Source of the DNA: a virus
Lineage: Duplodnaviria; Heunggongvirae; Uroviricota; Caudoviricetes
Reading direction: 5' to 3' (one strand)
IMG/VR virus record: IMGVR_UViG_2737471845_000010
Coordinates: 1-16,161 of that record
DNA length: 16,161 bases
Of the stretch, positions 1,321 to 13,374 are shown piece after piece. How positions within the stretch are numbered: the stretch's first letter is position 1; each line of letters opens with the position of its first letter. A model generated the notes under the pieces. The model saw only the letters and a program-made list of their open reading frames with translations, was not told the DNA's origin and made no database searches. Position numbers and translations under genes: made by a program.

Positions 1321-2331
1321 TTGTACGAAATACATTACGACGTTGAGTCTGAACAGCAAGCTTTTGAATTACTTGAACGTTACCTAAACGGACAAGCTTT
1401 ACCCGAAAAAATTAGTTTCAATGGTTGGCCAAGTCTAACCATCAGGTTGACTGGTGAAAAATTCAACAAATCACTCACACCTTCAGTTATGAAAGGATTT
1501 GTTGAAATGCAATCGCAACTCAATAAGTCTTATGCGCTAGCAAAGTTCGGAACTCCTGATGTCCGCAGGCTAACAAAAGAAGAACTTGATGCTTTAGAAA
1601 TTGAAGTTACAGTAGAGCAAGGTTCATCTCTTGTAGAGATTAACATTGATGGCTTCCTAAGCAAGCTTACGCACGAACTGGTAGGGAAAATGAACGCCAC
1701 AGAGATTGTATTTACGGTTCTCGGTGCTGCCGTTATATGGGGCGGTGTAACCGTCTTCAAACGCTATCTGGATAACCGTAAAGATACTCGGTTGGCTGAA
1801 ATTGCTAAAGAAGGCGACAAAGAACACCTACGCGCAATGCAAGTGATGACACAGGAGGAAACAAAACGCCTCCAAATCATCTCAGAAATGGTGGCTAAAA
1901 AACCTCTACTCGACAATATGGATCGAATGTCTTATGACGCTAAAACCACCATGGTTAAATCTTTCGTGCGTTCAGATTCAGCAGAAATTGACGGTGTCAC
2001 AATAGATTCAGAAACGGCAAAAGAGCTAGTAACAAATGCTCGTCGGCGCTCAGTTGAAATGAGAATAGACGGTATATACCGTATCGAAGAAGTGAATAAT
2101 ACCGACCCCGAAAGCTTCAAAGTTAAGGTTCGAAAGGTCGATTCTGATCAACGTTTGACCTGCGTTGTTCAGGATATATTCCTTGATGAATCAGGGAACA
2201 AAGAAGCCTTACAGCGAGCTGAATGGGAAAGAAAGCCTGTGCATTTAAGCATCAATGCCAAACACATTGATGGAGATATCAAGTCCGCCGTAATTTTACA
2301 TGTGAAAGATGTTGAAGATAAGCCCGAGTAA
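1321..2331 (+). CDS. hypothetical 336-aa protein with one central transmembrane segment; AT-rich inserted accessory gene of unknown function
   Basis: Long ORF with TTG start preceded by GAGGGAA; no in-frame ATG further upstream. Central hydrophobic stretch IVFTVLGAAVIWGGVTVF followed by a basic patch KRYLDNRK. The DNA is visibly more AT-rich than the flanking prophage genes. Convergent with Q. No recognisable catalytic motif. Confidence 0.7.
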   Translation: MYEIHYDVESEQQAFELLERYLNGQALPEKISFNGWPSLTIRLTGEKFNKSLTPSVMKGFVEMQSQLNKSYALAKFGTPDVRRLTKEELDALEIEVTVEQGSSLVEINIDGFLSKLTHELVGKMNATEIVFTVLGAAVIWGGVTVFKRYLDNRKDTRLAEIAKEGDKEHLRAMQVMTQEETKRLQIISEMVAKKPLLDNMDRMSYDAKTTMVKSFVRSDSAEIDGVTIDSETAKELVTNARRRSVEMRIDGIYRIEEVNNTDPESFKVKVRKVDSDQRLTCVVQDIFLDESGNKEALQRAEWERKPVHLSINAKHIDGDIKSAVILHVKDVEDKPE

Positions 2332-7023: not shown

Positions 7024-7320
7024 TCACTGCATCGCCTTCTGTAAAATAACCGCATGCCCCAGCTTCTCCGCCAGCGCCAGTTCTGCCTTAGCACCCGCCG
7101 ACCGCTGCCAGCCATTCAGCATGTAAATCGCATCCACGCAACGTATCATCGCCATGCAGATATCCATGTACTGCGACTGAGTCAGTCCGTCCGGAAGTAC
7201 TGCCGGGTTTAAGACGGTATGCCCTTCCCGTTTCAGTTCCTCTTCTGCCTTGTGGAACGCCTCACGGTTGAAATTTTTATACCCGGTCATCGGACCGGCG
7301 ATATAAACCCTCACCCTCAC
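7024..7320 (-). CDS. DUF4406-like protein (nucleoside 2-deoxyribosyltransferase-like fold)
   Basis: GTG start with strong AGGAGGTG RBS, overlapping the upstream stop. N-terminal RVYIAGPMTG…FN…AF motif typical of this family. Confidence 0.7.
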   Translation of the reverse strand: MRVRVYIAGPMTGYKNFNREAFHKAEEELKREGHTVLNPAVLPDGLTQSQYMDICMAMIRCVDAIYMLNGWQRSAGAKAELALAEKLGHAVILQKAMQ

Positions 7321-7709
7321 TCAATCACCTCCTGAAAATTACCCCGATAGAACGCCAGTACACGTTGCATTGATTCGCTGTTACGGCATTCCCGGCAAAT
7401 TATGTTCATGTCTCTGTCGTAGCGACGGATTTCACCATCAGGTAACTTCCGGACCAGTGCCGGGTCAGCTTTCTTCGGAGTTTTACACCACGCCTGATAC
7501 GCCTGTTCTGATACAAAAACACCGTGTTTACCGGATATGTACAAATCACCACAAGCAACCACATCCACAAGACAACGTCTGACCGTATGCCAGCCCGCCC
7601 CCGTTGCCCTCTCCAGTTGCGACATCGTCATGCGTTTGTTCCTGTGTATCAGCCCGATAATTCGCGCCTTCAGTTCTTCCCGCTGTTCGGGTGTAAAAAC
7701 GCTTGCCAT
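7317..7709 (-). CDS. hypothetical protein with predicted HTH segment (130 aa)
   Basis: AGGAGG RBS upstream of ATG 7709; segment MTMSQLERATGAGWHTVRRCL resembles a helix-turn-helix. Confidence 0.7.
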   Translation of the reverse strand: MASVFTPEQREELKARIIGLIHRNKRMTMSQLERATGAGWHTVRRCLVDVVACGDLYISGKHGVFVSEQAYQAWCKTPKKADPALVRKLPDGEIRRYDRDMNIICRECRNSESMQRVLAFYRGNFQEVIE

Positions 7710-9447: not shown

Positions 9448-9873
9448 TTAGTGCATCACCACAGCATTTCCTGCCGGGCCACCACGATTCATCTGATTGA
9501 AACCGGCGATTGCCACTGCGACAAAATCATCAGCGTCTCTCACCAGTCGTTCCCGCGTCTCCACCAACTCCCGAAAATAGACTGAACTGTGGCTGCGCAT
9601 CCGGGCCACCAGCAGAGGTGGCATTGCTTTTTCGATAGCCGGTAACAACGCCTGAATTTTTTTAACCGCATCAGGAGTGTCTTTCTCTACCCAGCGGAAA
9701 ATTTTCTGGGTATTGCGAGCCAGGGCTTCCGGATGGCTATCGTCATACAGTTCAGGAAACGTCATACCCAACTCAAAATAAGCCTGGGTTATTCCAGCTG
9801 CTGGAACTTTTTCACCGTCCGGATGCGCCCAGACATTCATCGCCATGCGGATGTGTTCATGCTTGATTTTCAT
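9448..9873 (-). CDS. YdaT-like (CII-position) regulatory protein
   Basis: Begins MKIKHEHI, as I recall for the Rac YdaT family. ATG overlaps the stop of the Cro-like gene (ATGA). Position corresponds to cII in lambdoid layouts. Confidence 0.7.
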   Translation of the reverse strand: MKIKHEHIRMAMNVWAHPDGEKVPAAGITQAYFELGMTFPELYDDSHPEALARNTQKIFRWVEKDTPDAVKKIQALLPAIEKAMPPLLVARMRSHSSVYFRELVETRERLVRDADDFVAVAIAGFNQMNRGGPAGNAVVMH

Positions 9874-10085
9874 GAATCATTCTTTCCTTCGTTCGAGGTG
9901 CTATCCTGCTTCTTGTAAAGTTCTGGGTTGTATTTCAATTCACCGTTAGTAATTTCATCCAGCTCCATTGCTCGAAGTTTGGGAATAACTGCTTTCCACC
10001 GCACAACAGCCACATGTGAAATTCCAAGAGCCTCAGCTACTAGTCGCTTTTTTTTGAAATAGCGCAGAACATCATCTTTGAACAT
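9870..10085 (-). CDS. Cro-like repressor (DicC/YdaS-like small HTH protein)
   Basis: AGGAGAG RBS upstream of ATG 10085. 71 aa with HTH (RLVAEALGISHVAVVRWKA). Divergent from the CI-like repressor gene across an operator-bearing intergenic region. Confidence 0.8.
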   Translation of the reverse strand: MFKDDVLRYFKKKRLVAEALGISHVAVVRWKAVIPKLRAMELDEITNGELKYNPELYKKQDSTSNEGKNDS

Positions 10086-10114: not shown

Positions 10115-10176
10115 GTAACAATAGTTACATAGCAATGTCAACCATAGCAACATCACTTGGTAGTAACATTGGTTAC
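10115..10176. promoter_or_regulatory. OR-like operator region: two GTAAC-N4-GTTAC palindromes between the divergent cro-like and repressor genes
   Basis: GTAACaataGTTAC at 10115..10128 and GTAACattgGTTAC at 10163..10176, the latter directly abutting the repressor ATG. A TTGACA hexamer is present on the minus strand in this interval. Confidence 0.6.
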
Positions 10177-10851
10177 ATGAAAAACACTATCAGCGAACGT
10201 ATTCGGAATCGTCGAAAAGACGTTGGATTAACCCAACAGCAGGTTGCGAAAGCAATCGGCATATCTCGTGTATCCGTAACAAAATGGGAAAATGGCTCTT
10301 CAAAACCTGACGGTGAGAATTTACATCTACTGTCAAAATTGCTTTCCAAATCTCCTGAATGGATTCTTTATGGAAAGGACGGTCACGATAAAACCGATGA
10401 TCTGCGTCTGAATCAGTACCTTTACATTAGTGACAACATCGCCCGGTTGCCCGTTTTAACGTGGGAACAGGCTGGTTATTGGGATATGAGTTGCCCAGTA
10501 ACCGAGATTCCTGGTATTAAGAATTGGGTTGATGTCATGACAAAAACCGCTGAAAACTCTTTTTTATTGCATGTTGAGGGAGATGCGATGACAAACTCTA
10601 ACGGCCTCCCAACCATCCCCGACGGATCTACCGTGCTGATCACACCATGCTCAAGTAACATTAGAGAACTGGCGGGGAAAATAATCTTAATCCAATTGGA
10701 AGGAACGCCAAACGTAACACTAAAAAAAGTTGCGATTGACGGACCAAACATCTATCTGTTGTCACTGAATCCGCTTTACAAACCCATCGAACTGAATGGC
10801 GGTTACACCATTAAAGGTAAAGTTTCACAAATACATCAATACTTAGATTGA
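10177..10851 (+). CDS. CI-like prophage repressor (N-terminal XRE-type HTH plus C-terminal S24 LexA-like domain)
   Basis: HTH segment LTQQQVAKAIGISRVSVTKWENG. C-terminal domain aligns by eye with lambda CI (…EGDAMT…; …VTLKKV…). Start chosen at ATG 10177; the tracked ORF begins at TTG 10078 and would overlap the operators and the cro RBS. Confidence 0.85.
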   Translation: MKNTISERIRNRRKDVGLTQQQVAKAIGISRVSVTKWENGSSKPDGENLHLLSKLLSKSPEWILYGKDGHDKTDDLRLNQYLYISDNIARLPVLTWEQAGYWDMSCPVTEIPGIKNWVDVMTKTAENSFLLHVEGDAMTNSNGLPTIPDGSTVLITPCSSNIRELAGKIILIQLEGTPNVTLKKVAIDGPNIYLLSLNPLYKPIELNGGYTIKGKVSQIHQYLD

Positions 10852-10855
10852 GTCA

Positions 10856-10883
10856 GAACCCGCATTCATTGCGGGTTTTTTAT
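10856..10883 (+). terminator. rho-independent terminator after the repressor gene
   Basis: AACCCGCA-ttcatt-GCGGGTT stem-loop followed by TTTTTT. Confidence 0.7.
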
Positions 10884-10912: not shown

Positions 10913-10939
10913 ATTGACTCATGTGGTAACTCTTGTTAC
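10913..10939 (+). promoter_or_regulatory. OL/PL-like element: TTGACT hexamer followed by the third operator palindrome GGTAACtcttGTTACC
   Basis: Same GTAAC-N4-GTTAC half-sites as the two OR sites (10925..10938), located at the head of the plus-strand early-left operon. The -10 element is not clear. Confidence 0.5.
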
Positions 10940-12747: not shown

Positions 12748-12802
12748 TGTGTGAGACCTTTGGCGGCATCAGTTTAATTGCTGGCTGATGTCCGCCCTTT
12801 TT
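12748..12802 (+). ncRNA. dicF: DicF-like small RNA (cell-division inhibitor sRNA family) ending in an intrinsic terminator
   Basis: Sequence …CCTTTGGCGGCATCAGTTTAATTGCTGGCTGATGTCCGCCCTTTTT closely resembles my recollection of E. coli DicF (GGCGG…AUCAGUUU…CCGCCCUUUUU). Long imperfect hairpin GGCGGCATCAG / CTGATGTCCGCC plus T-run. Located directly upstream of a dicB homologue, as in Qin. 5' boundary is approximate. Confidence 0.55.
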
Positions 12803-12985: not shown

Positions 12986-13174
12986 ATGGAAACGTTATTA
13001 CCAAACGTTAATACGTCTGAAGGTTGTTTTGAAATCGGTGTCAGAATCAGTAACCCTGTATTTACTGAAGATGCCATTAATAAGAGAAAACACGAACGGG
13101 AGCTATTAAATCAAATATGCATTGTTTCAATGCTGGCCCGTTTACGCCTGATGCAAAAAGGACGCTGCCAATGA
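12986..13174 (+). CDS. dicB: DicB-like cell division inhibitor (62 aa)
   Basis: Translation METLLPNVNTSEGCFEIGVRISNPVFTEDAINKRKHERELLNQICIVSMLARLRLMQKGRCQ is near-identical to the E. coli DicB sequence as I recall it. GAGGA RBS; the tracked ORF's upstream extension is not needed. Confidence 0.8.
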   Translation: METLLPNVNTSEGCFEIGVRISNPVFTEDAINKRKHERELLNQICIVSMLARLRLMQKGRCQ

Positions 13175-13374
13175 ATACAGCATTTGCACTCGTTCTGACA
13201 GTTTTTCTTAATACAGGCGAACCAGTCGATCTTGTTATTGGTATACATGACTCAATGAAAGAATGCATGGCTGCCGCAGCGGAACAGAAAATTCCCGGCA
13301 ACTGTTATCCGGTTGATAAAGTTATTCGCATGGACAATAACGAAATCCCGGCAGGACTTAAAACAGCACCGTAA
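13171..13374 (+). CDS. ydfD: YdfD-like small membrane/lysis protein (67 aa)
   Basis: ATG overlaps the dicB stop (ATGA). N-terminal hydrophobic helix AFALVLTVFL, then …CMAAAAEQKIPGNCYPVDKVI…, resembling Qin YdfD from memory. Same gene order as Qin dicB-ydfD. Confidence 0.6.
   Translation: MNTAFALVLTVFLNTGEPVDLVIGIHDSMKECMAAAAEQKIPGNCYPVDKVIRMDNNEIPAGLKTAP

Follow-up and report, generated by a model that had tools for sequence, protein, structure and literature searches.

Phage spread, toxin release and the sensitisation of lysogens to quinolones and mitomycin are driven by DNA-damage induction, and in the locus described here one natural base change is predicted to cut a prophage off from the SOS response while leaving its immunity intact. 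The locus comes from IMG/VR virus record IMGVR_UViG_2737471845_000010; the window analysed is the whole 16,161-bp contig JUDN01000076.1 (assembly GCA_000798515.1), and it is the early region of a lambdoid prophage. Its repressor gene encodes a helix-turn-helix (HTH) and S24 master repressor of the lambda CI / P22 C2 type in which alanine takes the place of the catalytic serine. It is probable that this protein is a natural non-inducible (Ind-) repressor, blind to the SOS response, and that the prophage is thereby uncoupled from SOS. The features that carry the argument are the following, with coordinates in the window.

10177..10851, plus strand: cI-type repressor gene, 224 amino acids (aa) (open reading frame and translation; Pfam HTH_3 and Peptidase_S24; PHROG 4 'transcriptional repressor', E 1.9e-42)
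10201..10365, plus strand: HTH_3 region, residues 9-63 (Pfam HTH_3, E 2e-16; P22 c2 N-terminal domain, E 2.6e-12)
10450..10824, plus strand: C-terminal domain of Peptidase_S24 fold, residues 92-216 (Pfam PF00717, E 6.1e-17, 61.8 bits, gathering score 23.3)
10471..10476, plus strand: Ala99-Gly100, counterpart of the lambda CI Ala111-Gly112 scissile bond (phmmer and MAFFT alignments)
10585..10587, plus strand: GCG codon of Ala137, at the position of the catalytic serine nucleophile (pairwise and MAFFT alignments, codon read)
10723..10725, plus strand: AAA codon of Lys183, counterpart of the general-base lysine (aligned to lambda K192, LexA K156 and UmuD K97)

Residues are counted from the ATG at 10177, because more distant homologues start at an MK(T/N) that matches this codon and because a putative operator abuts it. 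The Prokaryotic Genome Annotation Pipeline (PGAP) starts the gene at an upstream ATG at 10135, which gives a product of 238 aa named 'LexA family protein' and turns Ala137 into Ala151.

The protein belongs to PF00717 and the Peptidase S24 fold, as its hidden Markov model (HMM) score lies above the gathering score and its fold is that of LexA, CI and UmuD. The best PDB matches by phmmer include the full-length lambda repressor (3bdn, E 7.8e-14) as well as its C-terminal fragments. An AlphaFold2 model of the repressor has a mean confidence (predicted local distance difference test, pLDDT) of 81, falling below 50 only in the linker at residues 70-84, and its top Foldseek matches in the PDB are the lambda repressor, the lambda C-terminal domain with the cleavage-site region, LexA and UmuD. 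The HTH domain, a divergent cro gene and repeated predicted operators also point to a master repressor of the lambda CI type. By contrast with its PGAP name, which reflects the S24 domain only, the protein scores far below the cutoff of the LexA equivalog model TIGR00498 of NCBIfam (26.2 bits against 110.95, through the C-terminal part only). It likewise stays under the cutoff of the DicA model NF007257 of NCBIfam (81.7 bits against 101), with residues 3-88 aligned to profile positions 4-89 of 135.

The initial annotation had aligned the C-terminal domain by eye, reading an alanine encoded by GCG at the S24 catalytic serine and a Lys-Lys pair at the expected place of the lysine; profile, pairwise, MAFFT and fold comparisons uphold this reading throughout. 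In the phmmer alignment to 3bdn, the motif HVEGDAMTN lies on lambda EVEGNSMTA, which puts Ala137 on lambda Ser149, and when the repressor is aligned by MAFFT to 78 homologues together with lambda CI, LexA and UmuD, Ala137 falls in the column of lambda CI Ser149, LexA Ser119 and UmuD Ser60. The codon itself reads GCG. VTLKKV lies over lambda FTFKKL, the first Lys of the pair (Lys183) being the aligned general base, and EQAGYW lies over lambda VQAGMF, so that the Ala-Gly cleavage site, which the initial annotation had left unmentioned, is intact. The MAFFT alignment reproduces the Ser, Lys and Ala-Gly columns of the pairwise alignment, and the HMM, pairwise and fold comparisons leave no alternative serine for the catalytic position. 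An active S24 peptidase in the MEROPS sense has the Ser of G-x-S-M, a Lys base and an Ala-Gly or Cys-Gly bond in the linker; the repressor keeps the Lys and Ala-Gly and lacks the Ser.

These features hold across the alleles examined: Lys183 is kept in every one, and Ala-Gly in all Ala-type alleles except one Salmonella variant with Val-Gly. The C-terminal domain of the Ser allele in the O55:H7 strain CB9615 differs from that of the window only by A137S, A166V and G208V, so no Ser, Thr or Cys has arisen in the Ala allele as a replacement. Furthermore, a sequencing error can be dismissed, since a 57-nt probe centred on the codon is matched exactly in 681 complete Escherichia coli genomes.

Self-cleavage, whether stimulated by RecA or by alkaline pH, is very probably absent in the Ala137 repressor, as predicted by analogy with LexA S119A. 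This is the standard non-cleavable variant of LexA, and it still binds activated RecA (PMC3159453). Similarly, a non-cleavable CI of phage 933W blocks induction (PMC8951638). PDB entries 1jhh, 6a2s and 8s7g, which are cited as Ser-to-Ala non-cleavable S24 cases, are among the Foldseek matches of the model.

The allele is also common. Of 5426 complete E. coli genomes, 702 have the repressor gene, in every case under the name 'LexA family protein', and 686 of these 702 carry Ala (GCG) and 16 carry Ser; the Ala allele is thus found in about one in eight complete E. coli genomes (686/5426). The counts of carrier genomes include clonal lineages, and the median copy number of the gene per genome is one. 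The alleles are distributed as follows.

681 genomes: exact match to the codon-centred 57-nt probe, GCG (Ala)
2 genomes: probe match with one other single-nucleotide polymorphism (SNP), GCG (Ala), one of the two having been read
3 genomes: CGC...GCG...ACG haplotype, GCG (Ala)
8 genomes: O55:H7 type (CB9615, RM12579, DEC5A/D and others), TCG (Ser)
8 genomes: sequence type (ST) 130 type, TCA (Ser)

The TCG codon is found in CB9615, in loci L095 and L096 and in allele P0006, TCA in ST130 and allele P0003, and GCA in the Salmonella Ala allele. The idea that no close Ser allele exists, based on a 57-nt TCG probe in the background of the window that gave no exact match, was rejected once a probe derived from CB9615 found Ser alleles; the earlier probe had missed them because two further linked SNPs break the 28-nt megablast word.

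Other collections give a similar picture. In the IMG/VR sample, 78 of 80 loci are Ala and 2 are Ser; all 78 Ala loci are full length with Ala-Gly and Lys-Lys, comprising 22 DNA alleles and 11 protein alleles, and none of them is truncated. In a collection of 15 billion proteins, where up to 15 members were read per 90%-identity cluster, three clusters are uniformly Ala among the members read, namely the main E. coli / E. albertii cluster, that of P0002 and a Salmonella cluster (several serovars and subspecies diarizonae). The ST130-like and Enterobacter clusters are uniformly Ser. The O55:H7-type Ser proteins are about 95% identical to the window and so fall inside the 90% threshold of the main cluster, though they are not among the members listed. 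A profile search of a genome-contig collection, in which E. coli is a single genome, returned two irrelevant HTH matches only. In addition, one E. coli protein of 132 aa (P0009) is an ST130-type allele of the Ser lineage with a frameshift just before G-D-S-M (…ENSFYCA, then stop), a second and cruder natural loss of the protease part of the repressor.

The Ala allele is not confined to one clonal prophage, given its several integration sites and many flank clusters. In E. coli 1303 it resides in a lambda-like prophage of about 48 kb between potB and potC with a full head and tail gene set; this prophage bears two insertion sequence (IS) elements, and it has a pseudogene for a tail fibre and, after Q, another with an ORF6N domain. 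In ST131 the Ala prophage adjoins ompW; its J is frameshifted, lom contains an IS, and its far end carries ash and Rha-family genes. The P0002 allele belongs to a prophage at the yccA site. Ala alleles are therefore found at no fewer than three integration sites (potB/potC, ompW, yccA). Of the Ser alleles, that of O55:H7 occupies the rspB (Qin) site and that of ST130 the yccA site. Around the IMG/VR loci, the right 1.5 kb falls into at least 18 sequence clusters and the left replication region into at least 26. When the initial annotation called the element 'domesticated', the lesions (IS insertions, tail-fibre or J pseudogene) bore it out in part, but complete genomes show a lambdoid prophage of roughly full length, unlike the short Qin remnant of K-12.

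The history of codon 137 can be followed from close relatives. The CB9615 Ser allele differs from the window allele by 4% in nucleotides (synonymous divergence, dS, 0.105), and with TCG facing GCG between such close alleles the change is a single T-to-G transversion. The P0002 allele is Ala (GCG) even though its dS from the window allele is 0.55. In the Salmonella sister lineage Ala is encoded by GCA in a wholly different codon context, for which reason it is independent. A neighbour-joining tree built with the codon masked branches, from the Ser outgroup, into P0002 (Ala) and then a trichotomy of the O55:H7 type (Ser), the C8 type (Ala) and the main group (Ala), so that the O55:H7 Ser alleles are nested in an otherwise Ala group. 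By Fitch parsimony, site 137 requires three changes and is among the ten most changeable of the 136 sites of the C-terminal domain. In nearly all of about 70 more distant homologues this site is Ser, the exceptions being one degenerate Arsenophonus sequence and truncated entries.

Despite the alanine, the C-terminal domain is under strong purifying selection. Its ratio of nonsynonymous to synonymous divergence (dN/dS) is 0.05-0.12, including Ala-Ala pairs such as the window and P0002, and that of the N-terminal part is 0.12-0.6; nearly identical pairs are excluded from these values, as their counts are too small for a meaningful ratio. The E. coli GCG pattern may reflect repeated Ser-to-Ala changes, one such change followed by reversion, or short recombination tracts. 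The window and P0002 are identical over 53 nt around the codon; a linked CAT/CAC site fits recombination, but the CGC...GCG...ACG haplotype breaks that linkage. Overall, the substitution is more likely to have been selected than to be accidental, because the allele is common, is found on many mosaic backgrounds, and involves a codon that has changed at least three times in a small clade.

In one equally parsimonious history, a long-lived Ala state, with a dS of about 0.55 separating Ala alleles, would have reverted to Ser. Codon 137 would then be a reversible toggle (TCG to GCG and back) that turns the SOS inducibility of one immunity group off and on. Such a toggle would account for the constraint on Ala-Gly, Lys and the cleft in 'dead' alleles, but we consider it rather improbable. 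The 'dead' catalytic apparatus could be held ready for reversion, or the Ala protein could still engage activated RecA, acting as decoy or sensor, or bind an antirepressor through that cleft.

The remainder of the window shows what such a repressor would control, and its relevant features are these.

10115..10128, no strand: putative operator GTAACAATAGTTAC in the right operator region (OR), between cI and cro; perfect palindrome, identical in 9 of 9 Ala and Ser loci
10163..10176, no strand: putative operator GTAACATTGGTTAC in OR, abutting the ATG at 10177; perfect palindrome
10926..10939, no strand: putative operator GTAACTCTTGTTAC, candidate left operator and promoter (OL/PL); perfect palindrome just 3' of a TTGACT -35-like hexamer at 10914..10919
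10857..10882, plus strand: terminator-like hairpin AACCCGCA-TTCAT-TGCGGGTT followed by a T run (read from the sequence; kept in related loci)
9870..10085, minus strand: divergent cro-like gene, 71 aa (Pfam P22_Cro, E 2.9e-16), nearly identical in Ala and Ser loci
9448..9873, minus strand: ydaT-family gene, 141 aa, CII-like activator (Pfam YdaT_toxin; PHROG 163 'CII-like transcriptional activator', E 6.8e-44)
12748..12797, plus strand: DicF-like small RNA just upstream of dicB (Rfam RF00039, 45.4 bits with a gathering score of 48, E 4.4e-08, full model length)
12986..13174, plus strand: dicB, 62 aa, cell-division inhibitor (Pfam DicB, E 2.2e-37; gene call in locus L003)

The repressor gene is flanked by a cluster of three perfect 14-bp GTAAC-N4-GTTAC palindromes. 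With one mismatch allowed, a scan yields 4 matches against 0.31 expected, a number reached by 0 of 200 shuffles. The palindrome at 10926-10939 lies just past the hairpin at 10857..10882, which is the likely terminator of the repressor gene and was not reported by a simple terminator scan. Across the nine loci compared, Salmonella and Enterobacter included, the OR-distal palindrome is identical, and the other two palindromes, the recognition helix and Cro are closely similar; in this comparison the OL palindrome was not found in the Salmonella locus. Nearly all the Ala and Ser loci compared probably form one immunity group, as judged from these sequences. The assignment of OR and OL, and repression of DicF and dicB, are suggested by position and by likeness to lambda, Qin and CP-933P, and the site at 10926..10939 is a candidate promoter region for a rightward ydfA-DicF-dicB-exonuclease-xis operon. 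A scan at the gathering threshold had missed the DicF-like RNA because its score of 45.4 lies under 48.

Besides cro and the ydaT-family gene, the minus strand of the window encodes replication and nin-region proteins, RusA and Q, and it includes the beginning of a DNA methyltransferase gene. The plus strand has the repressor, small open reading frames (ORFs), DicF, dicB and ydfD, as well as genes for a large exonuclease and a DUF4224 protein; in related loci the DUF4224 gene directly precedes the integrase. A CII-like role has been shown for the YdaT homologue of CP-933P (PMC8630535). The epithet 'Qin-like' from the initial annotation suits the operon with its ydfA-like gene, DicF, dicB, ydfD and exonuclease. 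In the replication and nin region, a DUF977 protein at 7317-7709 (minus strand) matches PHROG 142 'Ren-like exclusion protein' (E 8e-42), and its gene is possibly a superinfection-exclusion gene. Between Q and the methyltransferase, on the opposite strand, lies an ORF of 336 aa at 1321-2331 (plus strand) that matches phrog_6191 (unknown function) and gave no Pfam or PADLOC match. Locus L016 has at the same spot a different ORF of 467 aa and a D12 methyltransferase, and the interval looks like a variable cargo (moron) slot.

On the reading of an SOS-blind repressor, a single TCG-to-GCG change has exchanged the serine nucleophile for alanine, and the Ala repressor would still fold, dimerise and bind its operators. 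On its left it would silence cro and ydaT, on its right the ydfA-DicF-dicB-exonuclease-xis/int operon. Under DNA damage it would probably still bind activated RecA, as LexA S119A does, but this binding would lead to no attack on its own Ala99-Gly100 bond. The prophage would thus be uncoupled from SOS, with leftover induction through stochastic flipping of a bistable CI/Cro/YdaT switch or through a factor acting in trans. In line with this, prophages Sp6, Sp9 and Sp10 of O157 Sakai, whose repressors have no peptidase motif, are not inducible by mitomycin and induce spontaneously (PMC2669165), and the CI/Cro/CII-like PaaR2/YdaS/YdaT switch of CP-933P is bistable (PMC8630535). For the host, it is plausible that a non-inducible prophage would bring the benefit of no longer killing the cell under DNA damage while immunity is kept; lysogens of a non-inducible prophage are no longer sensitised to ciprofloxacin and mitomycin (PMC13320796). 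Within the shared immunity group, a resident Ala-type prophage would also keep up its immunity against Ser-type relatives during the SOS response.

Several rival explanations have to be weighed against this. The initial annotation had proposed an antirepressor as another route of induction, and a repressor that does not cleave itself could indeed leave the prophage SOS-inducible through an antirepressor in its own or a co-resident prophage, in the style of Gifsy, 186 Tum, N15 AntC or P22 Ant. The constrained, intact C-terminal domain and the many backgrounds would fit this, as they suggest phages that are still active, and two complete prophages offer candidates: in ST131 the ash and Rha-family genes of the far end (L023 306-1135, E. 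coli ST131, NZ_OX637964.1, next to a split ompW), and in E. coli 1303 the ORF6N-domain pseudogene just after Q. ORF6N is an N-terminal domain found in phage antirepressor proteins. Antirepressors are moreover small and diverse, and action in trans across prophages is documented (PMC3121763). In the window, however, no ORF matches an antirepressor family in Pfam or PHROGs, there is no PADLOC match, and no CTGT-N8-ACAG site is present. A consensus-scored LexA-box scan that recovers the sulA box as positive control (18/20) found no LexA-like box near ash/Rha in ST131 or the ORF6N pseudogene in 1303, and none anywhere in the 1303 prophage; the ash and Rha-family genes are possible antirepressor candidates that the scan leaves unsupported. 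The known antirepressor-controlled lambdoid repressors are also short and have no S24 domain, and induction through an antirepressor is, on balance, unlikely. The sole good LexA-like site in the prophages scanned is TACTGTAAAAATATCCAGTT at 628-647 of the window (16/20, a score reached by 1 of 300 shuffles). It overlaps codons 3-9 of the N6_N4 DNA methyltransferase gene (start 655, minus strand) and is conserved in loci L016, L020 and L022, in Ser-type and Ala-type prophages alike; as the basis of an antirepressor route it was rejected for its place inside the methyltransferase 5' end and its presence in Ser-type prophages. A weaker LexA-like palindrome (12-14/20), seen at 13163-13182 of the window, in L016 (12282) and in L022 (22266; TGCTGTATTCATTGCCAGCA), sits at the dicB/ydfD junction within coding sequence and is probably coincidental.

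Cleavage of the Ala protein by other means appears highly improbable. The nucleophile could be supplied by a neighbouring residue or by water, or else the bond could be cut in trans by a co-resident S24 protease that has its serine, such as a homoimmune Ser-type repressor or a different CI. Ala-Gly and Lys are present in virtually every Ala allele, over more than 35 protein variants from three lineages, and the C-terminal dN/dS is as low as in Ser alleles, as would be expected if the site were still used. LexA, lambda CI and UmuD have each been shown to cleave intermolecularly in vitro, but S24 trans-cleavage proceeds slowly and is confined to the enzyme's own substrate. The textbook route to non-cleavable S24 proteins is moreover a Ser-to-Ala change at this very position, the comparison with the nearest Ser allele shows no new Ser, Thr or Cys, and with a median of one gene copy per genome a homoimmune Ser partner is normally absent. 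A further explanation is that the substitution reflects neutral decay in already defective prophages, its frequency coming from the clonal expansion of hosts such as ST131. The Ala prophages examined do bear IS insertions, a tail-fibre pseudogene and a frameshifted J, many of the listed carriers belong to ST131 or other heavily sequenced lineages, and a canonical Ser or Lys is likewise missing from roughly a fifth of the nearest HTH+S24 cluster representatives. Drift, however, would not strike one codon at least three times while sparing Ala-Gly, Lys and the domain as a whole (dN/dS 0.05-0.12), and both independent changes give Ala, the least fold-disturbing substitution. With at least three integration sites and dozens of mosaic contexts the allele is not one clone, and 0 of the 78 Ala loci in IMG/VR are truncated; decay of this kind is accordingly a doubtful explanation.

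The reading of an SOS-blind repressor, which we continue to prefer, has its own points to answer. Non-cleavability is argued from homology and from engineered mutants of relatives. The strict retention of Ala-Gly and Lys and the low C-terminal dN/dS could mean that the cleft is still functional, but they would also follow from a purely structural part in dimerisation. That the allele is spread over so many prophage backgrounds is easier to understand if the phages still move, which requires some route of induction. GCG on divergent E. coli backgrounds may come from short recombination tracts rather than repeated mutation, and recombination could inflate the recurrence and constraint on which the case for selection is based. 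As for prevalence, the ST130-like Ser allele is frequent in draft assemblies, with listed members on 270, 133, 106 and more contigs, and because that cluster is so well represented in drafts the 43:1 ratio of Ala to Ser holds for complete genomes only. Finally, the best match among 50,697 phage records is 43.5% identical; the absence of close relatives from this collection was considered as a sign of non-inducibility and rejected, since Ser alleles are absent too, which makes the collection uninformative on inducibility.

The near-isogenic natural Ser/Ala pairs (O55:H7 CB9615 versus ST131 or 1303) constitute a clean natural experiment on SOS-blind prophages, in an allele that is widespread in E. 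coli, including ST131 and O111:H8, and in E. albertii. They make it possible to test the benefit of 'grounding' a prophage, the movement of SOS-blind lambdoid prophages between backgrounds, and how many prophages with a 'LexA family / S24 peptidase' repressor are truly inducible. Annotation and the prediction of prophage inducibility should check the catalytic dyad, beyond the domain match alone.

Compared with known systems, the repressor resembles lambda CI and P22 C2 (MEROPS S24, PF00717) in its HTH and S24 domains, the Ala-Gly of the linker, the Lys base and a divergent cro with operators between. Lambda CI is its best match in sequence and fold, with an identity of only about 24-28% (Foldseek). 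It differs from both in having Ala at the nucleophile position, with self-cleavage predicted to be absent, and the CII analogue here is of the YdaT family. LexA S119A has the same chemical lesion and retains its fold and its binding to DNA and to activated RecA (PMC3159453), and non-cleavable 933W CI illustrates the phenotype that would be expected, a non-inducible prophage (PMC8951638). LexA S119A, lexA3(Ind-), lambda cI ind- and non-cleavable 933W CI are laboratory alleles, whereas Ala137 is natural, common (686/5426) and has arisen more than once. A second group, comprising Gifsy GfoR/GtgR, DicA (Qin), RacR, PaaR2 and the Sakai Sp4/6/9/10 repressors, would be alike in escaping SOS cleavage. 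The N-terminal domain resembles that of DicA (81.7 bits, below the cutoff), and the group shares the genomic layout seen here, in which the repressor gene lies between cro/ydaT and the dicB operon. These short repressors (Gifsy, DicA, RacR, PaaR2, Sakai) measure about 135-150 aa and have no S24 domain, whereas here only the nucleophile is changed; Gifsy also has a LexA-controlled antirepressor module, of which no equivalent was found in the window or in the 1303 and ST131 prophages by the Pfam, PHROG and LexA-box scans. The O157 Sakai repressors were rejected as the same protein, the S24 domain being wholly absent, and serve as an analogy only; the 'pr' repressor of E. coli Nissle was rejected as the same gene, being a different small gene.

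A search of the literature on catalytic-serine loss in prophage repressors, and by WP accessions, found no paper on this allele. Loss of the nucleophile is already frequent in the wider S24 repressor family and is unsurprising in principle: among the 99 nearest HTH+S24 representatives at 50% identity, about 80 keep Ser and Lys and about 19 have no canonical Ser or Lys. Four other representatives have Ala in an aligned G-D-A-M-like motif, and most of these have also lost Ala-Gly, which points to old degeneration. In contrast to these wider non-peptidase homologues, the present repressor has a 96% DNA-identical Ser allele that still circulates, and its other catalytic features are intact. What is particular here is the combination of a recent one-base change whose Ser precursor is still in circulation, a constrained remainder of the protein, recurrence in the E. 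coli and Salmonella sister lineages, and a high prevalence that includes ST131.

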